45,350 nucleotides of DNA from a virus (taxonomy: Duplodnaviria > Heunggongvirae > Uroviricota > Caudoviricetes), in IMG/VR virus record IMGVR_UViG_2541047917_000003; one strand, 5' to 3'. The notes beneath the pieces are model-generated. The model was not told where the DNA came from and did no database searches. It saw nothing but the letters and a program-made list of their open reading frames with translations. A program made the position numbers and the translations under genes. How positions within the stretch are numbered: position 1 is the first letter of the stretch; every line of letters begins with the position of its first letter. Shown in pieces: positions 18,991-45,350 of the stretch.

Positions 18991-19002
18991 AGGTCGCCGC
19001 CC
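18991..19002. other. cosN cohesive-end site (12-nt overhang sequence)
   Basis: AGGTCGCCGCCC on + strand is the reverse complement of the lambda 5'-GGGCGGCGACCT overhang; ~180 nt upstream of Nu1 as in lambda. Confidence 0.8.
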
Positions 19003-23824: not shown

Positions 23825-24907
23825 ATGAAAAAATTAACAGTGGCAATTTCTGCTGTAGCTGCATCAGTACTGATGGCGATGTCTGCTCAGGCAGCTGAAA
23901 TTTATAATAAAGACAGTAACAAGCTGGATCTGTACGGGAAAGTTAATGCTAAGCACTACTTCTCCTCTAATGATGCAGATGATGGTGATACTACTTATGC
24001 CCGTCTTGGCTTCAAAGGTGAAACCCAAATCAACGATCAACTGACTGGTTTCGGTCAGTGGGAATATGAATTCAAAGGCAACCGCGCTGAATCTCAAGGT
24101 TCCTCCAAAGACAAAACCCGTCTTGCATTTGCAGGCCTGAAATTCGGTGACTACGGCTCAATCGATTACGGCCGTAACTACGGTGTAGCATACGACATCG
24201 GTGCGTGGACTGACGTTCTGCCAGAATTCGGTGGCGATACCTGGACCCAAACAGATGTGTTCATGACTGGTCGCACCACTGGTGTTGCAACCTATCGTAA
24301 CAACGACTTCTTTGGTCTGGTCGATGGCCTGAACTTTGCTGCTCAGTATCAGGGTAAAAATGACCGCACTGACGTAACTGAAGCCAATGGTGATGGTTTC
24401 GGTTTCTCCACTACTTATGAGTATGAAGGATTCGGCGTGGGTGCAACCTATGCTAAATCAGATCGCACTGACGGTCAGGTCGCCTATGGTAAGAGCAAAT
24501 TCAATGCCTCCGGCAAAAATGCGGAAGTATGGGCTGCAGGCCTGAAATATGATGCGAACAATATCTATCTGGCTACCACATATTCTGAAACTCAGAATAT
24601 GACCGTTTTTGGTAATAACCATATTGCAAACAAAGCACAAAACTTTGAAGCAGTAGCACAATATCAGTTTGACTTCGGTCTGCGACCATCTGTTGCTTAC
24701 CTTCAGTCAAAAGGTAAAGACCTTGGTGTTCATGGTGACCGAGACTTAGTCAAGTATGTCGATGTCGGTGCTACTTACTACTTTAATAAAAACATGTCCA
24801 CTTTTGTTGATTACAAAATCAACTTAATTGACGATAGTAAGTTTACCAAAACAGCTGGTATTGATACCGACGACATCGTCGCTGTAGGTCTGGTGTATCA
24901 GTTCTAA
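23825..24907 (+). CDS. Outer-membrane general porin, OmpC/OmpF family (phage-encoded Lc/NmpC-like)
   Basis: 360-aa ORF with signal peptide [30 protein letters not shown]...GKVN start and C-terminal ...VAVGLVYQF; sits between Q and S on the opposite strand as nmpC does in DLP12. Confidence 0.9.
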
Positions 24908-25096: not shown

Positions 25097-25480
25097 TTAA
25101 TTAGAGTTATTAACAACGATATCCATCTCTAACCGGATATCTAATGCCATTAACATCCCTTCAATTATACCCTCAGCCTTCTGTAACCTTTTCCCGATAT
25201 AACCATCAGAGCAGCAATGCTTACCTGCCAGTGACATGAATGTCATACCGACTACATAATAATCTACTAATAAATCGTGCAAATCGCTGTTGTTCTTTTT
25301 CAGACGGGCCATGCACCCGCAAATGATCATCGCGTCATCGTCACAACATTGCGGGCGAGATTTTACTTTTGAAGGAATTAATCCCTTAAAACCGGCGGCA
25401 ATGGACGACCAGGTCACATCTTCATGATTATTAGCCGCCCACGCTCCCCAACGTTCAAGAACCATCTGAATATCACGCAT
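25097..25480 (-). CDS. Q: Late-gene antiterminator Q (phage 21 / DLP12 QuuD type)
   Basis: ORF 25097..25495; likely start [24 protein letters not shown]...; recalled near-identity to DLP12 QuuD; unrelated to lambda Q. Confidence 0.85.
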
Positions 25481-25565
25481 CAACTTACTCCACAAAAATC
25501 AGACCAGAACGCCAATTACAAGCAAAAATCAACAAAACAGTATTAGTTGATTGTTATCTCTGACT

Positions 25566-25688
25566 TCATACTCCTGCTCCTGTCAGGGTTTTGGCGTAAT
25601 TCTTCAGTATTCGGTAATCGGTCAAAACAGAACTGGGGAAACGATATAAGCGCAGGCGCATCCAGCGGTGGCGAAGAAGTTCTGCCAT
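25566..25688 (-). CDS. Small protein YlcG-like (40 aa)
   Basis: Short ORF between rusA and Q (MAELLRHRWMRLRLYRFPSSVLTDYRILKNYAKTLTGAGV) resembling DLP12 YlcG; below the ORF-track length cutoff; coordinates from manual translation. Confidence 0.45.
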   Translation of the reverse strand: MAELLRHRWMRLRLYRFPSSVLTDYRILKNYAKTLTGAGV

Positions 25689-25702
25689 ATTAAACTCAAA
25701 CA

Positions 25703-26065
25703 TCATTCATTCCCCATTTCGGTGATGGTCAGTTCCAGCCTCCCACCTTTGGTAACAGGCATCTTCACAACGCGGTAATCAACGACCTGAGCATCATCCA
25801 GCCAGAAACCTGCTTTAGTGAGTGCGTCAAAAGCGGCTTTTTGCAGATTATCCAGGTCACGGCGACGGCGATCCGGCATGTGGCACTCAATGCGGATTTT
25901 CACAGGGATAGCCAGGCCGATATCCAGCATTGCGTTTTTAATGATTCTGGCGACGTTATCGCGGTATGCCTGCCCCTCTGCGCTGACGTGCGTGCGCCCG
26001 CGATTATGGCGGTAATAGCGATTATTGCTCGGAGGCCAGGGTAATGTGATGCTGTAGGTATTCAC
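25703..26065 (-). CDS. rusA: Holliday-junction resolvase RusA
   Basis: 120-aa [39 protein letters not shown]..., recalled near-identity to DLP12 RusA. Confidence 0.95.
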
Positions 26066-26268
26066 GCCTTAATAATCCCCTCTTTCAGCCACATAACCTG
26101 TGTTTTCGAGCGCGCATTCTTTTGCATATGCAGCATCGACTTGCTTGGCATGCCCTTTACCGGCAATCTTCTGTATGCGCTAAACCTAGATAGAATCCAC
26201 TCTGTGCTCATTGAAGCCCGCTCTATGCTTCCTTTCTGGTATTGAAGGGATTGAGATGGGCTAAGCAT
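26062..26268 (-). pseudogene. Decayed remnant of a ybcO-like (DUF1364) gene
   Basis: 68-aa ORF whose C-terminus (...[13 protein letters not shown]) matches the recalled YbcO C-terminus, while an adjacent frame encodes ...VDAAYAKECALE; the N-terminal zinc-ribbon part is absent. Confidence 0.4.
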
Positions 26269-26608
26269 TATTGGCCTCCTGCATCAGGAGAAAGACAATC
26301 ATGGCGGCGCGGAGAGGTCTGGTATCAAATATTGGGCTTACGCCTTTTGCATCCACACACCATTCAGTTAACTGGTCTAAGATAGAAATCCTGTATTTCT
26401 CAATAATCGGCCATGAAGCGCTCGGATCATTGCAGTAGTCAGGCAAATGATTTAATGGCTCAAAAGTTGTATCAGCATTTCCGTAATACCATTTGTTGGT
26501 GTTATTCCCTGATGTTTCCGGTTTACTTGCCCAAAGGCCTTTAAAAATTATGTCTCCTACCATTCTGTTAATTTCAAAATCACTTAACTGTGAATAATCC
26601 ATTGTCAT
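26261..26608 (-). CDS. nin-region hypothetical protein
   Basis: ORF 26261..26644; likely start [28 protein letters not shown] with ATGA overlap on the ninE stop. Family not assigned. Confidence 0.5.
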
Positions 26609-26781
26609 TTCCTCGCACGATATCTTAGCCACCGGATATCCCACAGGTGAGCTGTGTAATTGAAGGTTTTTACGTCAGATTCTTTTGGGATTGGCTTGCG
26701 TTTATTTCTGGAGCGTTTCGTTGGAAGGTATTTGCAGTTTTCGCAGATGATGTCGGTGAAACTTCGTCGCTGTCGCCTCAT
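26605..26781 (-). CDS. ninE: NinE
   Basis: 58-aa product [58 protein letters not shown]; ATGA overlap with the MTase stop; matches recalled NinE. Confidence 0.7.
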
Positions 26782-27305
26782 GCCGCCCTCCTGACGCCCT
26801 GCCCGATCGCCATCAATGCCGCTTTGGATACGGTAGTAAACATCCGTCGAGGACTGATGAACGGTCGCCAAATCAGCAGCATGGAGCCTTTGCTGTTTCC
26901 CTTCTTCTCCAACCCTGTCGATGGTTCGATAAAATTAATCCGTCCATCAGTGATAATGCGAACTTCGTCGACACTCTCCAGAGCCTTGCTGAACCATCCG
27001 ACTGACATATCCTCTGGCACAAGCATAACTACCGTCTGTCGCTGTTGTATGCACTGCTCAGCGGCTTTTTCCACCCACGGCCTGATATTGCTGTACGGTG
27101 GGTTATTCCAGATTGCACCGTGGCTTACCCACTCAGAATTGAGCGCGTCGTCGGCCTCAGTTAGCCAGTGAGCACACAGAGCATTTTTGTCGCTCGCTGC
27201 CGAATCCAGCCAGAATCCAAACTCAATATCCAGTGCATCAAAAAGCCAAAGCGGCGTTTGCCAGCAGTCCTTGTCGTGTGCTGGCGTATTTGATTTGATT
27301 GTCAT
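26778..27305 (-). CDS. Phage DNA N6-adenine methyltransferase (Dam-like, NPPY motif)
   Basis: ORF 26778..27365; likely start [26 protein letters not shown] (ATGA overlap with ninB stop); catalytic NNPPYS motif. Confidence 0.8.
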
Positions 27306-27742
27306 GCAGCCCGATCTCCCCATCTCGCTTTCCACTCCAGAGCCAGTCTCGCTTCGTCTGACCACTTAACGCCACGCTCTGTACCGAATGCCTGTATAAG
27401 CTCTAATAGCTCCGCAAATTCGCCTACACGCATCCTGCTGGTTGACTGGCCTATTACCACAAAGCCATTCCCGGCAAGGTTAGGAACAACATCCTGCTGC
27501 TTTAATGCTGCGGTAAACACACACTTCCAGCTTTCTGCATCCAGCCAGCGACCATGCCATTCAACCTGACGAGAGACGTCACCTAAGCAGGCCCATAGCT
27601 TCCTGTTTTGGTCTAAGCTGCGGTTGCGTTCCTGAATGGTTACTACGATTGGTTTGGTTGGGTCTGGAAGGATTTGCTGTACTGCGTGAATAGCGTTTTG
27701 CTGATGTGCTGGAGATCGAATTTCAAAGGTTAGTTTTTTCAT
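27302..27742 (-). CDS. ninB: Recombination protein NinB
   Basis: ORF 27302..27760; likely start MKKLTFEIRSPAHQQNAIHAVQQILPDPTKPIVV..., lambda NinB-like. Confidence 0.9.
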   Translation of the reverse strand: MKKLTFEIRSPAHQQNAIHAVQQILPDPTKPIVVTIQERNRSLDQNRKLWACLGDVSRQVEWHGRWLDAESWKCVFTAALKQQDVVPNLAGNGFVVIGQSTSRMRVGEFAELLELIQAFGTERGVKWSDEARLALEWKARWGDRAA

Positions 27743-27815
27743 GACTTCCCTCTCCCCCAAATAAAAAGGCCTGCGATTACCAGCAGGCCTGTTATTAGCT
27801 CAGTAATGTAGATGG

Positions 27816-28106
27816 TCATCTTTTAACTCCATATACCGCCAATACCCGTTTCATCGCGGCACTCTGGCGACACTCCTTAAAAATCAGGTTCGTGCTCATC
27901 TTTCCTTCCCGTTCTTCCCTAGTAGCAAACCGGTAATACACCGTTCGCCAGACCTTACCTTCGATAACCAGAAGACCTGCCCGTGCCATTTTAGCCGCGG
28001 CCTGATTTATGCTGGTTACTGTTGCGCCTGTTAGCGCGGCAACGTCCGGCGCACAGAAGCTATTATGCGTCCCCAGGTAATGAATAATTGCCTCTTTGCC
28101 CGTCAT
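27816..28106 (-). CDS. ren: Ren
   Basis: 96-aa ORF immediately downstream of P, as lambda ren. Confidence 0.85.
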   Translation of the reverse strand: MTGKEAIIHYLGTHNSFCAPDVAALTGATVTSINQAAAKMARAGLLVIEGKVWRTVYYRFATREEREGKMSTNLIFKECRQSAAMKRVLAVYGVKR

Positions 28107-28804
28107 ACACTTGCTCCTTTTAGTCCGAACTTAGCTTTGATTTCTGCGATCTTCGCCAGAGCCTGTGCACGATTTAGAGGTCTACCGCCCATGACAGGAA
28201 GTTGTTTTACTGGTTCAGGGATCGCCTCACCACGGTTAATTCTCGCAGTCATATGGACAAGCTCATCTGCGGCCTTACGGCGTAATTCCGCATCAGTAAG
28301 CGCATTGGCCCGCATGTTCTGATACAGGTTGGTAACCAGCCAGTAGTGCGCGTTTGATTTCCACGGATAAGACTCCGCATCCGGATACAGGCCTCGCTTC
28401 CGGCAATACTCGTAAACCATATCAACCAGCTCGCTGACGTTTGGCAGTCCGGCGATAACGGATGCTTCTTCCCGGCACCATGCAACAAACTGCCCGGGTG
28501 ATGGCAGAAATGGTCGATTCTGCCGACGGGCTACGCGCATTCCTGCGTTAACCTGTTCCATCGTGGTGATCCCGTTTTCCCGAAAAGCCAGAACCCACTG
28601 GCGACGGATTTCGTTCACTTCGTTCTGGTCACGGTTAGCCAGGCTCGCCGGGAAAGTTGCCAGTAACTGGCTGAACACACCGTTGATGATCTGCGCTACC
28701 TGCTGTACCTGCGGCTTTTCATCGTACTGTTCCGGCATGTTGTTGGCGATCCGACGCATCTGCTCACGGTCAAAGTTAACCATCTGTGCGGCGATGTTTT
28801 TCAT
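28103..28804 (-). CDS. P: Replication protein P (DnaB helicase loader)
   Basis: 233-aa ORF collinear with lambda P. Confidence 0.95.
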   Translation of the reverse strand: MKNIAAQMVNFDREQMRRIANNMPEQYDEKPQVQQVAQIINGVFSQLLATFPASLANRDQNEVNEIRRQWVLAFRENGITTMEQVNAGMRVARRQNRPFLPSPGQFVAWCREEASVIAGLPNVSELVDMVYEYCRKRGLYPDAESYPWKSNAHYWLVTNLYQNMRANALTDAELRRKAADELVHMTARINRGEAIPEPVKQLPVMGGRPLNRAQALAKIAEIKAKFGLKGASV

Positions 28805-29631
28805 AGATCCACCCCGTAAATCCAGTCTGTGTTTGTCAGGTCGAGTTTTGGTTTGCTGGCTGTCACGCCTGCCTGTTGCTTGTTACGGTTGATTTCGAGT
28901 TGGGTCCACTTATCGCGGAGTTTGGCCGGGCTCAGCACGTTACCGGACCAGAAGTTGTCCTGGCATGCCCAGCGGAACAGCACGCACATGTCGCGGTGGT
29001 TACGTCCGTCACGTTCACGCATCAGGCGGATATCGTTAGCCCACCCAGCAAAATTCGGTTTTCTGGCTGATGGTGCGATAGTCTTCACCATGTCAAACAT
29101 CCACTCTGCGGCGGTCAGGTCTTCTGCTGTCCCCCACTTGCTGCCGCTCTGAATTGCAGCATCCGGTTTCACCACAGAAAGGTCGTTTTCTGGCTGGTCA
29201 GAGGATTCGCCAGAATTCTCTGACGAATAATCTTTTCTTTTTTCTTTTGTAATAGTGTCTTTTGTGTCCCCCTGTTTTGAGGGATAGCAATCCCCCAATT
29301 TGAGGGATGTTTTATCCCTCGTTTTAGGGGATTTTCCCTCGTTTTGAGGGATGCACCATTCTGAGATGTTTTTATTTGGTCCAAACATGCCGCCTTGCTG
29401 CTTGATAATATTCATTCTGACGAGTTCTAACTTGGCTTCATTGCACCGTTTGACAGGTAACTTTGTAATCTCGCTAAGTTGAGAATCGGTGATTCTGTCC
29501 ATTGGTTTATTCCACCCATAGGTTTTACGCAGAATGGCAAGCAGCACTTTAAACTGTCGCTTGGTCAGATCTGCGCCCGAATAAGCCTCAAGCAGCATAT
29601 TTGATAGTCTGGCGTAACCATCATCGAGATC
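28801..29631 (-). pseudogene. O: Replication initiator O, 3' portion (codons ~24 to end) separated from its start by an IS element
   Basis: Lambda O-like sequence from ...DLDDGYARLSNMLLEAYSGADLTKRQFKVLL... to the end. The ORF-track start at 29661 is a GTG inside the IS left end (MWITIAPFVT-DLDD fusion). Confidence 0.85.
29266..29353. repeat. ori-lambda iterons (four ~19-bp O-binding repeats) with adjacent AT-rich region
   Basis: tcccccctgttttgaggga / atcccccaatttgaggga / atccctcgttttagggga / tccctcgttttgaggga inside the O coding region, next to a T-rich stretch (29221-29260). Coordinates approximate. Confidence 0.85.
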
Positions 29632-31659
<2,028 letters not shown>

Positions 31660-36862: not shown

Positions 36863-36934
36863 GCGCGGCGTTACCGCATACCAATAACGCTTCACTCGAG
36901 GCGTTTTTCGTTATGTATAAATAAGGAGCACACC

Positions 36935-37099
36935 ATGCAATATGCCATTGCAGGGTGGCCTGTTGCTGGCTGCCCTTCCGAATCTTTACTTGAACGAATC
37001 ACCCGTAAATTACGTGACGGATGGAAACGCCTTATCGACATACTTAATCAGCCAGGAGTCCCAAAAAATGGATCAAACACTTATGGCTATCCAGACTAA
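36935..37099 (+). CDS. cIII: CIII (FtsH inhibitor stabilising CII)
   Basis: 54-aa [57 protein letters not shown], matching recalled lambda CIII; below ORF-track cutoff; start 7 nt before ORF 36942. Confidence 0.85.
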   Translation: MQYAIAGWPVAGCPSESLLERITRKLRDGWKRLIDILNQPGVPKNGSNTYGYPD

Positions 37100-40005: not shown

Positions 40006-40409
40006 GCGAAATTAACTCTCAGGCACTGCGTGAAGCGGCAGAGAAAGCCGGTGAAGATAAGTGGCAGGCTAAAAAAATAAATGGTGATTTTTTCGTTATT
40101 CGTCACGGTAGTTATACAAGACAGCATGGCTACACATCGTATCAACCCATTGCGGAGATTGATTGTAAGCCAGTCCGGGATTTTGTTGCCAAGGCTAATC
40201 CGGCTACCGTGCTGGAATTACTGGATGAACTGGAAGCAGCAAAAAAGCGCATTGCAGAACTGGAAGCGCGGGAAATACTGCTCCCGGAACGTAGCAGCAT
40301 GCTTCATCGAACAGATTTTCACGATGATTACCAAACGGTAATGGCATACAAAGTTTCTGAAGTCATCGATGCAATCCGCGCTACTGGCATTCGCATCAAA
40401 GGAGAGTGA
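40002..40409 (+). CDS. exo-xis region protein with coiled-coil segment (hypothetical)
   Basis: 135-aa ORF overlapping the preceding stop; LDELEAAKKRIAELEARE heptad-like segment; occupies part of the ea22 slot. Confidence 0.5.
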   Translation: MSEINSQALREAAEKAGEDKWQAKKINGDFFVIRHGSYTRQHGYTSYQPIAEIDCKPVRDFVAKANPATVLELLDELEAAKKRIAELEAREILLPERSSMLHRTDFHDDYQTVMAYKVSEVIDAIRATGIRIKGE

Positions 40410-40410
40410 G

Positions 40411-41166
40411 ATGATTCACTACCACGGTGGGCCTATTACTCCTGATACGTGCGCAATGAGAGCATGGAAAGGGCGACATGCGTTTATCAGTTTTGCGCAT
40501 TCAGGCCAGATCAATCTCGCGGCTGAATACTGTCAGTCGTTCGCGCTGGACAACGGTGCATTCACCGCCTGGAAAGCAGCTGGCAAAAACAAAATCGACT
40601 GGAGCGATTACTACGAGTTTGTTGCTCGCTGGAAGAATCACCCAGGATTCGATTTTGCCATTATCCCGGATATTATTGATGGCGGAGAGGAGGAAAATGA
40701 TGCGCTTCTGAATGAGTGGCCTCACGGAAAACTAGCTGGCGTTCCAGTGTGGCACATGAATGAAAGTGACGCGCGATTTATTCATTTGTGCAATGAGTTT
40801 CCGCGAGTGGCTATCGGTAGTTGTGGCGACTATGACGTAAAGCGCCCAACTCTTGCGGTAGCCAGAATGAAAGACCTGATTCGTCACATTGTTGATGGGC
40901 ATGGTCAGCCGGTTACGAAACTACATGGATTGCGCATGTTAAATCCGCTGATATTCACAAAATTACCCTTAGCCAGCGCAGATAGTACGAACGTCGCTCG
41001 AAACATCGGTATTGATAAAGCCTGGTCTGGGGCTTATGCACCTGCAAGTAAAGAGACACGCGCAGCATTAATGGTAGAACGGATTGAGGCACACAATAGC
41101 CCTGGTTCTCTTGCGTATTGTGAACAACGCGACCGCTTTGAAATGCAATTGCAACTAGCAGTTTAA
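40411..41166 (+). CDS. TGT-fold protein, candidate DpdA-like DNA-guanine transglycosylase
   Basis: ORF 40369..41166; likely start MIHYHGGPITPD (ATG 40411, SD aaaggagag). Motifs FALDNGAF and LASADSTNVARNIG resemble, from memory, the E. coli Tgt catalytic motifs LTDSGGFQ and DMFDCVMPTRNARNG; no CxCxxC zinc site seen. Confidence 0.45.
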   Translation: MIHYHGGPITPDTCAMRAWKGRHAFISFAHSGQINLAAEYCQSFALDNGAFTAWKAAGKNKIDWSDYYEFVARWKNHPGFDFAIIPDIIDGGEEENDALLNEWPHGKLAGVPVWHMNESDARFIHLCNEFPRVAIGSCGDYDVKRPTLAVARMKDLIRHIVDGHGQPVTKLHGLRMLNPLIFTKLPLASADSTNVARNIGIDKAWSGAYAPASKETRAALMVERIEAHNSPGSLAYCEQRDRFEMQLQLAV

Positions 41167-41176
41167 GGACTAACAA

Positions 41177-41974
41177 ATGACCACTATTACCAAAGAACGT
41201 ATTGAATTGTTCATTAAAAATCCGCTTGAAAACGGGCTTACTCGTGGCGAACAAATGGAACTGGCACGAATTGCACTGGCATCACTGGAACGCGAACTGA
41301 TTCGCCACGAGCATGCCAAATGGTCTGACTCCACATTTGGCTGCGTTGGCCCCATTGGTCCACTGAAACACCTCTCAAAAGAGGCTCTGGAAGCCGCAGC
41401 CGAACCAGACGATCTCAGCGAGTGGGCTGATATGCATTTCCTGTTGTGGGATGCACAGCGCCGTGCTGGCATCAGCGATGCTGAAATTACCGCTGCTATG
41501 GAAGATAAATTGAAGATCAACATGGAGCGCCAGTGGCCTGAACCAAAAGATGGTGAGCCTCGCTTGCACATTAAAGAACCCGGCAACTCTCCGGTAATTC
41601 CGGATGGTTTATCCACGGTATGCGCTGAGGCTTATCAGGTTGTAGGAGTTATGGCAGATGCGCTTGGTGTATTCGGTGATGCAGCAGTACAGAAAGTTCT
41701 GGATAACCTGTCACAGCAAAAACTTGTTCACAAAGATGTGCTGCCGTTCTCGCTTCCGGTGACTCCGGATGGTTGGATAAGCTGTAGTGAGCGAATGCCG
41801 AAAGAAACGGGTGACATTATTGTTGTTTCGGATGGCATTGTAATGTCCGGGATTTCTTATTCTCGTCGTGACGGGTTCTATATAGCCGCATTGGAGTACG
41901 ACGACGATGAGCCAATTGGCGGTGTAACCCACTGGATGCCTCTACCAGAACCGCCTCGATTAAAGGAGCTATAA
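41177..41974 (+). CDS. DUF550 (MazG-like nucleotide pyrophosphohydrolase) plus DUF551 protein, YfdR/YfdS-like
   Basis: 265-aa ORF; N-terminal KHLSKEALEAAAEPDDLSEWADMHFLLWDAQRRAGIS resembles MazG/HisE-type helices; C-terminal ...DGWISCSERMPKE...THWMPLPEPP resembles DUF551. From memory. Confidence 0.55.
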   Translation: MTTITKERIELFIKNPLENGLTRGEQMELARIALASLERELIRHEHAKWSDSTFGCVGPIGPLKHLSKEALEAAAEPDDLSEWADMHFLLWDAQRRAGISDAEITAAMEDKLKINMERQWPEPKDGEPRLHIKEPGNSPVIPDGLSTVCAEAYQVVGVMADALGVFGDAAVQKVLDNLSQQKLVHKDVLPFSLPVTPDGWISCSERMPKETGDIIVVSDGIVMSGISYSRRDGFYIAALEYDDDEPIGGVTHWMPLPEPPRLKEL

Positions 41975-42665: not shown

Positions 42666-42884
42666 ATGTACTTGACACTTCAGGAGTGGAACGCTCGCCA
42701 GCGACGCCCAAGAAGCCTTGAAACAGTTCGTCGATGGGTGCGCGAATGCAGGATATTCCCTCCTCCGGTTAAGGATGGAAGAGAATATCTGTTCCACGAA
42801 TCAGCGGTAAAGGTTGACTTAAATCGACCAGTAACAGGTAGCCTTTTGAAGAGGATCAGAAATGGGAAGAAGGCGAAGTCATGA
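42666..42884 (+). CDS. xis: Excisionase Xis
   Basis: 72-aa ORF MYLTLQEWNARQRRPRSLETVRRWVRECRIFPPPVKDGREYLFHESA..., lambda Xis-like; overlaps the int start. Confidence 0.95.
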   Translation: MYLTLQEWNARQRRPRSLETVRRWVRECRIFPPPVKDGREYLFHESAVKVDLNRPVTGSLLKRIRNGKKAKS

Positions 42885-43932
42885 GCGCCGGGATTTACCC
42901 CCTAACCTTTATATAAGAAACAATGGATATTACTGCTACAGGGACCCAAGGACGGGTAAAGAGTTTGGATTAGGCAGAGACAGGCGAATCGCAATCACTG
43001 AAGCTATACAGGCCAACATTGAGTTATTTTCAGGACACAAACACAAGCCTCTGACAGCGAGAATCAACAGTGATAATTCCGTTACGTTACATTCATGGCT
43101 TGATCGCTACGAAAAAATCCTGGCCAGCAGAGGAATCAAGCAGAAGACACTCATAAATTACATGAGCAAAATTAAAGCAATAAGGAGGGGTCTGCCTGAT
43201 GCTCCACTTGAAGACATCACCACAAAAGAAATTGCGGCAATGCTCAATGGATACATAGACGAGGGCAAGGCGGCGTCAGCCAAGTTAATCAGATCAACAC
43301 TGAGCGATGCATTCCGAGAGGCAATAGCTGAAGGCCATATAACAACAAACCCTGTCGCTGCCACTCGCGCAGCAAAATCAGAGGTAAGGAGATCAAGACT
43401 TACGGCTGACGAATACCTGAAAATTTATCAAGCAGCAGAATCATCACCATGTTGGCTCAGACTTGCAATGGAACTGGCTGTTGTTACCGGGCAGCGAGTT
43501 GGTGATTTATGCGAAATGAAGTGGTCTGATATCGTAGATGGATATCTTTATGTCGAGCAAAGCAAAACAGGCGTAAAAATTGCCATCCCAACAACATTGC
43601 ATGTTGATGCTCTCGGGATATCAATGAAGGAAACACTTGATAAATGCAAAAAGATTCTTGGCGGAGAAACCATAATTGCATCTACTCGTCGTGAACCGCT
43701 TTCATCCGGCACAGTATCAAGGTATTTTATGCGCGCACGAAAAGCATCAGGTCTCTCCTTCGAAGGGGATCCGCCAACCTTTCACGAGTTGCGCAGTTTG
43801 TCTGCAAGACTCTATGAGAAGCAGATAAGCGATAAATTTGCTCAACATCTTCTCGGGCATAAGTCGGACACCATGGCATCACAGTATCGTGATGACAGAG
43901 GCAGGGAGTGGGACAAAATTGAAATCAAATAA
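42862..43932 (+). CDS. int: Integrase Int (tyrosine recombinase)
   Basis: 356-aa ORF MGRRRSHERRDLPPNLYIRNNGYYCYRDPRTGKEFGLGRD..., lambda Int-like. Confidence 0.95.
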   Translation: MGRRRSHERRDLPPNLYIRNNGYYCYRDPRTGKEFGLGRDRRIAITEAIQANIELFSGHKHKPLTARINSDNSVTLHSWLDRYEKILASRGIKQKTLINYMSKIKAIRRGLPDAPLEDITTKEIAAMLNGYIDEGKAASAKLIRSTLSDAFREAIAEGHITTNPVAATRAAKSEVRRSRLTADEYLKIYQAAESSPCWLRLAMELAVVTGQRVGDLCEMKWSDIVDGYLYVEQSKTGVKIAIPTTLHVDALGISMKETLDKCKKILGGETIIASTRREPLSSGTVSRYFMRARKASGLSFEGDPPTFHELRSLSARLYEKQISDKFAQHLLGHKSDTMASQYRDDRGREWDKIEIK

Positions 43933-44066: not shown

Positions 44067-45350
44067 GTGTACACATTTTCAGTTTCCCGTCTGGCGCTGG
44101 CATTGGCTTTTGGCGTGACGCTGACCGCCTGTAGCTCAACCCCGCCCGATCAACGTCCTTCTGATCAAACCGCGCCTGGTACCTCTTCTCGCCCGATTCT
44201 GTCGGCAAAAGAAGCGCAGAATTTCGATGCTCAACACTATTTTGCATCCCTGACACCAGGTGCTGCAGCGTGGAATCCTTCCCCGATTACCCTGCCTGCG
44301 CAACCTGACTTTGTTGTCGGCCCGGCGGGCACTCAAGGTGTAACGCATACCACGATTCAGGCGGCGGTAGATGCGGCAATTATCAAGCGTACCAACAAGC
44401 GCCAGTATATTGCCGTGATGCCTGGTGAGTATCAGGGAACGGTATATGTCCCTGCCGCTCCGGGTGGAATTACTCTGTACGGTACAGGTGAAAAACCGAT
44501 TGATGTGAAGATTGGGCTTTCCCTTGATGGTGGCATGAGCCCTGCCGACTGGCGTCACGACGTCAACCCGCGCGGCAAATATATGCCAGGTAAACCAGCG
44601 TGGTATATGTACGATAGCTGCCAGAGCAAACGCAGCGACAGTATCGGTGTTCTCTGCTCTGCGGTCTTCTGGTCACAAAACAATGGCCTGCAACTGCAAA
44701 ATCTGACCATCGAAAACACGCTGGGCGATAGCGTAGATGCAGGTAACCATCCGGCGGTGGCACTGCGTACTGATGGTGACCAGGTACAGATTAACAACGT
44801 TAACATTCTCGGTCGTCAGAACACCTTCTTTGTCACCAACAGCGGTGTGCAGAACCGTCTGGAAACGAATCGTCAGCCGCGTACGCTGGTGACCAACAGC
44901 TACATTGAAGGGGATGTGGATATCGTTTCTGGTCGCGGCGCAGTGGTGTTCGATAACACCGAATTCCGCGTGGTGAACTCACGTACTCAGCAAGAAGCGT
45001 ATGTGTTTGCACCGGCTACGCTGTCCAACATTTACTACGGTTTCCTCGCCGTAAACAGCCGTTTCAATGCTTTCGGTGATGGTGTGGCGCAACTGGGCCG
45101 CTCGCTGGATGTTGATGCCAATACCAACGGTCAGGTGGTGATCCGTGATAGCGCCATCAACGAAGGTTTTAACACGGCTAAACCGTGGGCCGATGCGGTG
45201 ATCTCTAATCGTCCGTTTGCGGGTAATACCGGCAGCGTAGATGATAACGACGAAATACAGCGCAATCTGAATGACACTAACTACAACCGCATGTGGGAAT
45301 ACAATAACCGCGGCGTGGGTAGTAAAGTGGTTGCAGAGGCGAAGAAGTAA
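44067..45350 (+). CDS. ybhC: Host lipoprotein YbhC (pectinesterase-like / acyl-CoA thioesterase family)
   Basis: 427-aa ORF with GTG start, lipoprotein signal (LALAFGVTLTACSS); E. coli gene flanking lambda attB. Confidence 0.9.
   Translation: MYTFSVSRLALALAFGVTLTACSSTPPDQRPSDQTAPGTSSRPILSAKEAQNFDAQHYFASLTPGAAAWNPSPITLPAQPDFVVGPAGTQGVTHTTIQAAVDAAIIKRTNKRQYIAVMPGEYQGTVYVPAAPGGITLYGTGEKPIDVKIGLSLDGGMSPADWRHDVNPRGKYMPGKPAWYMYDSCQSKRSDSIGVLCSAVFWSQNNGLQLQNLTIENTLGDSVDAGNHPAVALRTDGDQVQINNVNILGRQNTFFVTNSGVQNRLETNRQPRTLVTNSYIEGDVDIVSGRGAVVFDNTEFRVVNSRTQQEAYVFAPATLSNIYYGFLAVNSRFNAFGDGVAQLGRSLDVDANTNGQVVIRDSAINEGFNTAKPWADAVISNRPFAGNTGSVDDNDEIQRNLNDTNYNRMWEYNNRGVGSKVVAEAKK

Follow-up and report, generated by a model that had tools for sequence, protein, structure and literature searches.

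An adenine methyltransferase identical to the VT2-Sakai phage enzyme and a ninF/ybcO remnant with a private 11-bp deletion in the nin region of a lambda-like prophage

The distribution of genes in part of a viral genome record of 45,350 nucleotides (hereafter the window) was analyzed. The segment examined is the nin part of a lambda-like prophage, within its delayed-early rightward operon. As in other lambdoid nin regions, it lies between O, P, ren and Q, it is preceded by a tR2-type terminator and its genes are tightly packed. All of these genes are on the minus strand, and every feature described in an earlier sequence-only reading was recovered on that strand at the same position. Pfam assigned the flanking genes to NinB, NinE, NinX and RusA. 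Features and coordinates are collected in Table 1.

Table 1. Features of the nin segment, with positions counted from the first letter of the window
Feature	Position	Strand	Basis or remark
tR2-like intrinsic terminator, between ren and ninB	27767..27790	-	terminator scan: 8-bp stem, 6 GC pairs, then TTTTATTT
ninB (orf), recombination mediator	27302..27742	-	Pfam NinB, E 2e-54; TGA overlaps methyltransferase ATG as ATGA, 27302-27305
phage N6-adenine DNA methyltransferase, 175 aa + stop	26778..27305	-	Pfam, NCBIfam, 100% protein identity to VT2-Sakai dam
motif IV codons, NPPY (residues 68-71)	27093..27104	-	direct sequence reading: AACCCACCGTAC
ninE, 58 aa	26605..26781	-	Pfam NinE, E 4e-42; start overlaps methyltransferase stop as ATGA, 26778-26781
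ninX (DUF2591)	26261..26608	-	Pfam Phage_P22_NinX, E 7e-17; ATG at 26608
68-aa chimeric ORF (ninF start, filler, ybcO tail)	26062..26268	-	judged non-functional
ninF 5' remnant, ~19 codons	26211..26268	-	ATG with AGGAGG Shine-Dalgarno ahead; P22 and phrog_672 likeness
filler between both gene remnants, 70 nt	26141..26210	-	seen in 27 phage and 4 Stx1-phage records, without annotation
11-bp deletion site	26108..26109	.	relatives carry CCATACCTTCC on + strand, i.e. GGAAGGTATGG in gene sense
ybcO (DUF1364) 3' remnant, last 29 codons	26062..26140	-	79 nt here, 90 nt in relatives
rusA, Holliday-junction resolvase, GTG start	25703..26065	-	Pfam RusA, E 2e-22; NCBIfam NF007305, 276.8 bits
ylcG-like ORF, 46 aa	25566..25706	-	YlcG in relatives' annotation; start overlaps rusA stop as ATGA

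Direct reading of the sequence and of its overlaps bears out the description of an NPPY-containing ORF of 175 residues tied by ATGA overlaps to ninB on one side and to ninE on the other. The chain of overlaps runs further than had been described: ninE and ninX share ATGA (26605-26608), ninX and the 68-aa ORF share ATGCTTAG (26261-26268), the 68-aa ORF and rusA share GTGA (26062-26065), and rusA and ylcG share ATGA (25703-25706). Of these junctions, four are of the ATGA type, one is GTGA and one is an overlap of 8 nt. Linkage of genes by ATGA overlaps is a reported property of nin regions (PMC8022706). The ninX gene is mosaic relative to P22, and a PGAP-style annotation places its start at 26602, versus the ATG of Table 1. 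By analogy with lambda, the tR2-like terminator would place all the nin genes, including the methyltransferase gene, under N-dependent readthrough.

The methyltransferase was first considered. Its NPPY tetrapeptide agrees with the catalytic motif IV pattern (D/N)PP(Y/F/W), and such enzymes use S-adenosylmethionine, the NPPY motif holding the target adenine in its flipped-out state for methylation at N6. The protein matches PF05869 with an E-value of 6e-65 (218.4 bits for a cut-off of 28.1, profile positions 1-167 of 169) and the TIGR01712 equivalog model with 265.9 bits (cut-off 97.05, positions 1-165 of 165). These models place the protein in a small phage family, "T1/HP1/VT2 Dam" (PF05869/TIGR01712), which also holds the Dam proteins of phages T1 and HP1. 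A tblastn comparison showed that it is 100% identical over 175 aa to M.EcoVT2Dam, the product of the annotated dam gene of the Stx2 phage VT2-Sakai (AP000422.1, 16989-17513; BAA94133.1), which is recognized by the same family models and occupies the same position between ninB and ninE. The two cases differ solely in the carrier phage, here a non-Stx lambda-like prophage at att-lambda. The exact protein sequence is present on at least 1000 public contigs.

The enzyme had been described as a Dam-like N6-adenine methyltransferase. This holds for the adenine methyltransferase assignment and, through identity with VT2-Sakai dam, for the GATC target, but not for homology to the cellular Dam: PF05869 was the single family matched in a Pfam search at E <= 0.01, which gave no match to the cellular Dam family PF02086 (MethyltransfD12). 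E. coli Dam and phage T4 Dam (PF02086, alpha-class) share with the nin enzyme the reported GATC target and the SAM-dependent N6-adenine chemistry, whereas the nin enzyme has no detectable sequence relationship to them, is about 100 residues shorter and is without an evident domain of its own for target recognition. PMC7139368 describes T2 and T4 Dam as the sole homologues of the host Dam enzyme. A search of PDB sequences gave chance-level matches only (E 0.24 or worse), and a single-sequence AlphaFold model was unusable (mean pLDDT 43).

The identical phage enzyme was reportedly cloned by Radlinska and Bujnicki in 2001. M.EcoVT2Dam is stated to be GATC-specific in two later papers (PMC6602927 and PMC7139368), both citing that work. 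Since the protein sequences are identical, GATC is the predicted target of the nin methyltransferase, its specificity being taken from these secondary citations. For the identical protein, the literature in effect already contains the determination of methylation specificity that had been proposed for this gene. We also considered whether the enzyme could have a relaxed or different specificity, comparable to that of the non-specific Hia5 and M.EcoGII, and serve as a broad anti-restriction device. Non-specific orphan adenine methyltransferases do exist in some prophages (PMC3299994; PMC4659465), but Hia5-type enzymes carry FxGxG and DPPY motifs and a large region at the place of the target recognition domain (PMC3299994), whereas the nin protein matched PF05869 and TIGR01712 only and is the same protein as an enzyme reported to be GATC-specific. 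We regard this alternative as exceedingly unlikely. Hia5-type enzymes were also rejected as relatives, on the same motifs and large target-recognition region; T1, HP1 and VT-2 are not mentioned in PMC3299994.

Among 10 haplotypes, 11 variant codons of dam are synonymous and 3 are non-synonymous, and purifying selection thus acts on the gene. PMC7556043 calls the biological role of GATC methylases encoded by phages "still not well understood", and the virion DNA of lambda and P22 is known to be under-methylated at Dam sites (PMC8022706). The methyltransferase gene would be transcribed from pR, and only when N allows polymerase to read through the tR2-like terminator; its translation would be that of one member of a chain of genes with overlapping starts and stops. 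The most likely job of the enzyme would be to finish GATC methylation on fast-replicating phage DNA during lytic growth, and progeny with completed methylation may then be shielded, in the next host, from methylation-sensitive restriction enzymes cutting at GATC. The identical dam of phage Phi24B has a lytic-cycle expression pattern. Because of this pattern and of the tR2-like terminator upstream of the gene, the other proposal of the sequence-only reading, an epigenetic factor, loses ground: a role in the lysogen is unlikely.

To the left of ninX, a segment map drawn against P22, AU6Stx1 and K-12 DLP12 divides the 68-aa ORF into three parts of different origin. The first is the beginning of ninF. 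Between 26415 and 26211, a stretch that runs from the 3' end of ninX through nucleotide 58 of ninF, the window and P22 share 94% identity, and an AGGAGG Shine-Dalgarno sequence stands 7 nt upstream of the retained ninF ATG. The ORF matches the NinF family phrog_672 at positions 1-18 only, it departs from P22 NinF beyond residue ~19, it has no Cys cluster, and the NinF Pfam model does not match it. The ORF thus has in common with ninF of P22 and lambda (58 aa) the start codon, the way it overlaps the stop of ninX and the first ~19 codons, whereas the last two-thirds, including the Cys-rich part, have been swapped for unrelated sequence. The second part, the filler, was detected by distant blastn and tblastn searches only in 27 phage records that also carry the whole joint and in 4 Stx1-phage records; it is unannotated in all of them and was never found by these searches inside an annotated gene.

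The third part is the end of ybcO. Alignment to intact ybcO, which had been suggested as a check, was carried out: homology is restricted to the region from nucleotide 202 of the 291 of the K-12 gene onwards. The K-12 protein ends in ...VDAGYAKECALEGMARTQVIWLKEGVIKA; the corresponding residues of the window are divided between the end of the 68-aa frame and a neighbouring frame, VDAAYAKECALE. The last 29 codons and the stop are common to the window and to ybcO of the cryptic prophage DLP12 (DUF1364, putative nuclease, 96 aa) at ~94% DNA identity, an 11-bp gap aside. The remnant sits directly upstream of rusA, with its stop and the rusA GTG overlapping in GTGA as in DLP12, where the order rusA-ylcG-Q-porin is also the same. 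In contrast to DLP12 ybcO, the first 67 codons are absent here, and with them all the Cys and His residues of the K-12 protein; the 11-bp deletion further disrupts the remaining piece. Full-length YbcO has ~92-96 aa with N-terminal two-thirds bearing Cys and His residues, which the 68-aa ORF does not possess. The ORF has no Pfam or NCBIfam match, for Pfam even at E-values up to 10. The frame-repaired fragment of the relatives (42 aa) covers positions 62-91 of the 92 of PF07102 (YbcO/DUF1364) and, with 14.2 bits, stays below the cut-off of 29.9, versus 144.8 bits for intact K-12 YbcO. Programmed frameshifting as a means to produce YbcO was rejected, two-thirds of the gene being missing. The alignments thus corroborate the previous description of a truncated and frameshifted ybcO-like remnant. 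The 68-aa ORF itself had been read as a shortened ybcO, which is right for its C-terminal tail but not for its N-terminus, a ninF start, nor for its middle, the filler.

This composite structure, or scar, is not particular to the window. The joint is present in 584 of 5,426 complete E. coli genomes with at least 98.6% identity, and in the 27 phage records. The lambda-like phages ev243, mEp332 and PhiR11_1, together with the 584 genomes, show the order ninX, ninF 5' end, filler, ybcO 3' end and rusA at 98-99% identity. In a further 2,891 E. coli genomes, matches start at or past the same breakpoint, and among the matches listed all are within intact ybcO. PGAP labels the scar of relatives as a "DUF1364 ... 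missing N-terminus" pseudogene (8 E. coli genomes). A first illegitimate recombination very probably joined the 5' end of ninF to the filler, and a second one the filler to the last 29 ybcO codons, which would have imported a DLP12-type rusA-ylcG-Q-porin module.

In the relatives, the frame that starts at ninF is 64 aa long and is found on at least 1000 contigs, under the NCBI name "protein ninF". Could this frame, 64 aa in the relatives and 68 aa here, be a real small gene that encodes a variant of NinF or a newborn micro-protein? It keeps the ninF ATG behind its Shine-Dalgarno sequence and is open in 10/10 haplotypes, and the strong AGGAGG-ATG start makes it probable that the chimeric ORF is translated; its peptide, or the act of translating it, may then have a function. 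However, its likeness to P22 NinF ends with residue 19, the Cys-rich remainder is missing, the permissive Pfam search mentioned above found nothing, it receives no gene call in current PGAP annotation, its homologues are confined to one narrow clade, and in the present genome a frameshift has replaced its C-terminus. Its substitution pattern also differs from that of the neighbouring genes: in a sample of 10 closely related haplotypes with 8 variant codons in the scar ORF, none of these codons is synonymous and all 8 are non-synonymous, versus the 11 and 3 of dam (Fisher p = 0.001) and versus 48 synonymous and 19 non-synonymous codons in the pooled neighbouring genes (Fisher p = 0.0001). A real gene at this place is very unlikely. 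An Rfam search over the whole window gave no match in the scar or in its 70-nt filler. The scar, old and widespread, is judged to be a non-functional remnant, and the 68-aa ORF not to be a gene.

The 11-bp deletion, on the other hand, is private. ev243, mEp332, PhiR11_1 and the 584 E. coli genomes all keep the 11 bp GGAAGGTATGG, which the window lacks, and among 5,426 E. coli genomes and 50,697 phage records none spanned the junction without an 11-nt gap. Through the deletion, the frame that begins at ninF runs on into the ybcO tail, which generates the 68-aa ORF; the deletion is also the cause of the split of the ybcO residues over two frames. The exact 68-aa protein was found on one public contig, that of E. 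coli UMEA 3212-1 (EQY33845.1). The "ongoing decay" of the nin region proposed in the sequence-only reading therefore has to be divided: the truncation corresponds to a mosaic joint that is old and is kept in 584 E. coli genomes, whereas the deletion is recent.

As this deletion comes from a single public contig of a draft assembly, a sequencing or assembly artefact was considered. Over ~30 kb of alignment with ev243, it is the sole frame-breaking multi-base indel; the other indels, in blocks of 95-98% identity, are compensating pairs of 1 nt, one in-frame insertion of 3 nt and a few lone 1-nt changes. The assembly thus shows no sign of being error-prone in this comparison, and a clean deletion of 11 bp outside a repeat is an atypical type of error, so an artefact appears improbable.

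Another possibility is that the deletion is adaptive. The ninF-started frame now reaches the ybcO stop at the rusA GTG, by which the coupled chain from ninB to ylcG would be restored and RusA synthesis raised. Every junction from ninB to ylcG in the window has indeed a start/stop overlap, that of ybcO and rusA in intact DLP12 being the same GTGA, while in the relatives the 64-aa ORF stops 19 nt short of the rusA GTG, a start codon with a poorly spaced Shine-Dalgarno-like GAGGGG. Against this, reinitiation is possible across a gap of 19 nt, the deletion has not spread beyond one contig worldwide, and chance loss of the 11 bp from dead DNA is the simpler reading; we give adaptation a very small probability. 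It is likewise quite unlikely that the deletion is non-neutral and rescues RusA expression through the coupled ninB-ylcG chain of ORFs. In a broader form of this proposal, the widespread 64-aa chimera may stay open for the sake of its translation and not of its peptide, since ribosomes would thereby be carried over the scar and Rho-dependent polarity on rusA and Q would be avoided. The 11-bp deletion would rather correspond to neutral decay of an already dead sequence.

Taken together, it is very probable that the locus combines a known phage GATC methylase with an old, dead ninF/ybcO scar bearing a neutral private deletion. What had been observed here from the sequence is real, yet already known or trivial. 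The locus is an ordinary one, its methyltransferase being identical to a known phage enzyme whose exact sequence is so frequent among public contigs, and it gives nothing new on the question of how a GATC methylase benefits a phage in a host that has its own Dam. The 11-bp deletion is usable as a strain-specific marker. The database label "protein ninF" is attached, on at least 1000 contigs, to a 64-aa chimera of which just the first ~19 residues are NinF. The scar itself, whose pseudogene label already comes from the NCBI pipeline, is a textbook case of gene remnants at lambdoid mosaic joints.

The interval 26062-27305 and its flanks form a lambdoid nin region, and the whole window is a lambda-like integrated prophage. 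Escherichia phage ev243 aligns to the window with about 97% identity across some 30 kb, and in this alignment the ends of the ev243 genome (cos) join at 19002/19003. A lambda-type integrase gene (Int) is followed by an ORF which reaches the window end and which we take to be the bacterial ybhC; if so, the prophage is located at att-lambda. A general porin gene is present between Q and the lysis genes; this slot is taken by an IS5-disrupted nmpC in the K-12 cryptic prophage DLP12, whereas the gene is intact here. The lambda cIII RNA thermometer is the sole Rfam match in the window.

Location of the features discussed in the text
Feature	Position	Strand	Remark
O	28801-29661	-	
P	28103-28804	-	
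ren	27816-28106	-	
Terminator	27767-27790	-	stem-loop + T-run
ninB	27302-27742	-	
Methyltransferase (dam)	26778-27305	-	175-aa ORF
ninE	26605-26781	-	
ninX	26261-26608	-	
Scar	26062-26268	-	68-aa ORF
rusA	25703-26065	-	
ylcG-like ORF	25566-25706	-	46 aa
Q	25097-25495	-	QuuD-type
Porin	23825-24907	+	intact, 360 aa; opposite to nin genes; Pfam Porin_1, E 2e-151
cIII RNA thermometer	36922-36980	+	RF01804, 88.5 bits
phrog_887 match with adjoining dATP/dGTP pyrophosphohydrolase + DUF551 fusion	40369-41166 and 41177-41974	+	
Int	42862-43932		near window end
ORF taken as ybhC	44067-45350		

The sequence-only reading had proposed a Dam-like methyltransferase with an NPPY motif between ninB and ninE. 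The motif (catalytic motif IV) was found at residues 68-71 (codons 27093-27104), and the ATGA overlaps claimed on both sides are real (ninB stop/methyltransferase ATG, 27302-27305; methyltransferase stop/ninE ATG, 26778-26781). The protein matches the whole Pfam model PF05869 ('Dam') with 218 bits for a cut-off of 28, and the NCBIfam equivalog TIGR01712 'phage N-6-adenine-methyltransferase' with 266 bits for a cut-off of 97; the Pfam scan gave no match to the cellular Dam family PF02086. Using tblastn on 50,697 phage records we identified 201 records with at least 99% identity. Among the matches listed, four are 100% identical, including VT2-Sakai, whose record annotates the gene as 'dam ... 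similar to 933W L0094, HP1 Orf13 and T1 M.T1' and whose protein is REBASE M.EcoVT2Dam. The gene is under purifying selection, since 10 haplotypes (the window, ev243 and eight E. coli genomes) show 11 synonymous versus 3 non-synonymous variant codons.

A passage of PMC6602927, citing Radlinska & Bujnicki 2001, states that M.EcoVT2Dam 'is known to target 5'-GATC-3''. Radlinska's group (PMC7139368) counts the VT-2 enzyme with those of phages for which GATC activity has been demonstrated, reports only T2 and T4 Dam as phage homologues of host Dam, and lists 100% identity between the Phi24B dam CDS and the VT2-Sakai protein. Because published work covers an identical protein, the specificity experiment suggested earlier has in effect already been done, and a specificity other than GATC is highly improbable. 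The Phi24B dam CDS was found in lysogen cultures and its expression, followed by qPCR, tracked the lytic cycle, which fits the location of the gene downstream of a tR2-type terminator. What phage Dam enzymes do is 'still not well understood' (PMC7556043), and lambda and P22 virion DNA are under-methylated at Dam sites (PMC8022706). Our best guess is that the methyltransferase tops up GATC methylation in lytic replication. GATC is scarce in window 1-44000 (129 sites, for 216 expected under a Markov model and 171 from base composition), although the phage encodes its own GATC methylase. The prophage may have a second DNA-modification function beside this methylase, because a 251-265-aa protein matches phrog_887 'queuine tRNA-ribosyltransferase' (E 3e-101) and presumably resembles DpdA/TGT-like enzymes of 7-deazaguanine DNA modification. 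This protein had no Pfam hit; it adjoins a dATP/dGTP pyrophosphohydrolase + DUF551 fusion.

The 68-aa ORF between ninX and rusA reads as a patchwork of three pieces: a ninF start, a filler and a ybcO tail. For the first piece, the window DNA running from 26415 down to 26211 shows 94% identity to the P22 stretch that covers the 3' half of ninX and ninF up to nt 58. The ORF therefore owes to ninF its ATG, the 8-nt overlap into the ninX stop, the AGGAGG ribosome-binding site and about 19 initial residues, which correspond to a 19-residue stretch at the P22 NinF start. The phrog_672 match is confined to positions 1-18, and the Cys-rich remainder of NinF is missing. The second piece is a filler of 70 nt (26210 to 26141), found only in the 27 phage records with the scar and in four records of Stx1 phages (AU6Stx1, SH2026Stx1), where it is unannotated. 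In AU6Stx1 (2484-2986) an internal ninF fragment and the same filler occupy an unannotated gap after ninE, and likewise in SH2026Stx1; the ev243-like group thus has the ninF-to-filler joint in common with these two phages, the left and right joints being different. From 26140 the third piece is the ybcO 3' end, followed by rusA as in DLP12. The ninX segment (26261-26640, -) is also mosaic relative to P22: 26566-26640 is 98.7% identical, 26211-26415 94%, and the centre (26416-26565) gave no alignment to P22.

The suspected decay of a ybcO-like gene, by truncation or frameshift, proved correct on both counts. Aligned to intact K-12 ybcO, homology starts at nt 202 (codon 68), so that the remnant is truncated, and an 11-bp gap makes it frameshifted. 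The ybcO-like residues are indeed split between the C-terminus of the 68-aa ORF and a neighbouring frame, VDAAYAKECALE; K-12 YbcO ends in VDAGYAKECALEGMARTQVIWLKEGVIKA. All relatives carry 11 extra bases, GGAAGGTATGG (gene sense), between window positions 26109 and 26108. In them the ninF-started ORF ends after 64 aa, 19 nt short of rusA, and the ybcO tail is in a different frame; in the window the deletion moves the ninF-started frame into this tail, so that the ORF reaches 68 aa and its stop overlaps the GTG of rusA. Start/stop overlaps are then present at every junction from ninB to ylcG, as would suit an adaptive deletion restoring translational coupling to rusA, an explanation we consider very unlikely. 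When a 66-nt probe over the deletion junction was searched, neither the 5,426 E. coli genomes nor the 50,697 phage records gave a match free of gaps. The exact 68-aa protein occurs in only one public contig (EQY33845.1, E. coli UMEA 3212-1), and this strain is presumably where the window comes from. There is little chance that the deletion is an assembly artefact: over about 30 kb it is the sole frame-breaking multi-base indel relative to ev243, which argues for a sound assembly and a spot without constraint. The other indels, in blocks 95-98% identical, consist of 1-nt pairs that compensate each other, a single in-frame 3-nt insertion and a few isolated 1-nt changes.

Across the 10 haplotypes the ORF64/68 frame contains 0 synonymous and 8 non-synonymous variant codons (ninB 13 and 2, rusA 19 and 10, ybcO-remnant frame 2 and 5), and it differs from dam (Fisher's exact test, p = 0.001) and from the pooled neighbouring genes (p = 0.0001). 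The 68-aa ORF had no family match in Pfam or NCBIfam, sequence search found no homologue beyond its clade, and its C-terminus has been replaced through the frameshift. It is probably translated, because the ninF start signals are kept; that it is a functional micro-protein is nonetheless hardly credible, and we conclude that it is a scar which does not encode a selected protein. The ylcG-like ORF, unlike its neighbours, shows 3 synonymous versus 12 non-synonymous variant codons in the same haplotypes (Fisher p = 0.0003 versus pooled genes) and no Pfam match; it is either without purifying selection or a patchwork of swapped alleles.

The whole joint is present in 584 of the 5,426 complete E. 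coli genomes (at least 98.6% identity). For 2,891 further genomes the match begins at or beyond the ybcO breakpoint; in the examples listed it starts from the breakpoint or six bases in, within an intact ybcO gene. All eight E. coli genomes examined carry a 90-nt PGAP pseudogene at this site, 'DUF1364 domain-containing protein; incomplete; missing N-terminus'. The 64-aa form, present in at least 1,000 contigs, is mostly labelled 'protein ninF' in NCBI sources, a propagated mis-annotation since only residues 1-19 are NinF. Lambdoid phages typically carry gene remnants at their mosaic joints. The content of the region is already known, as the methyltransferase has an identical, characterised counterpart and PGAP already marks the pseudogene in hundreds of genomes; what is new here is only the 11-bp deletion, a private mutation in dead sequence.
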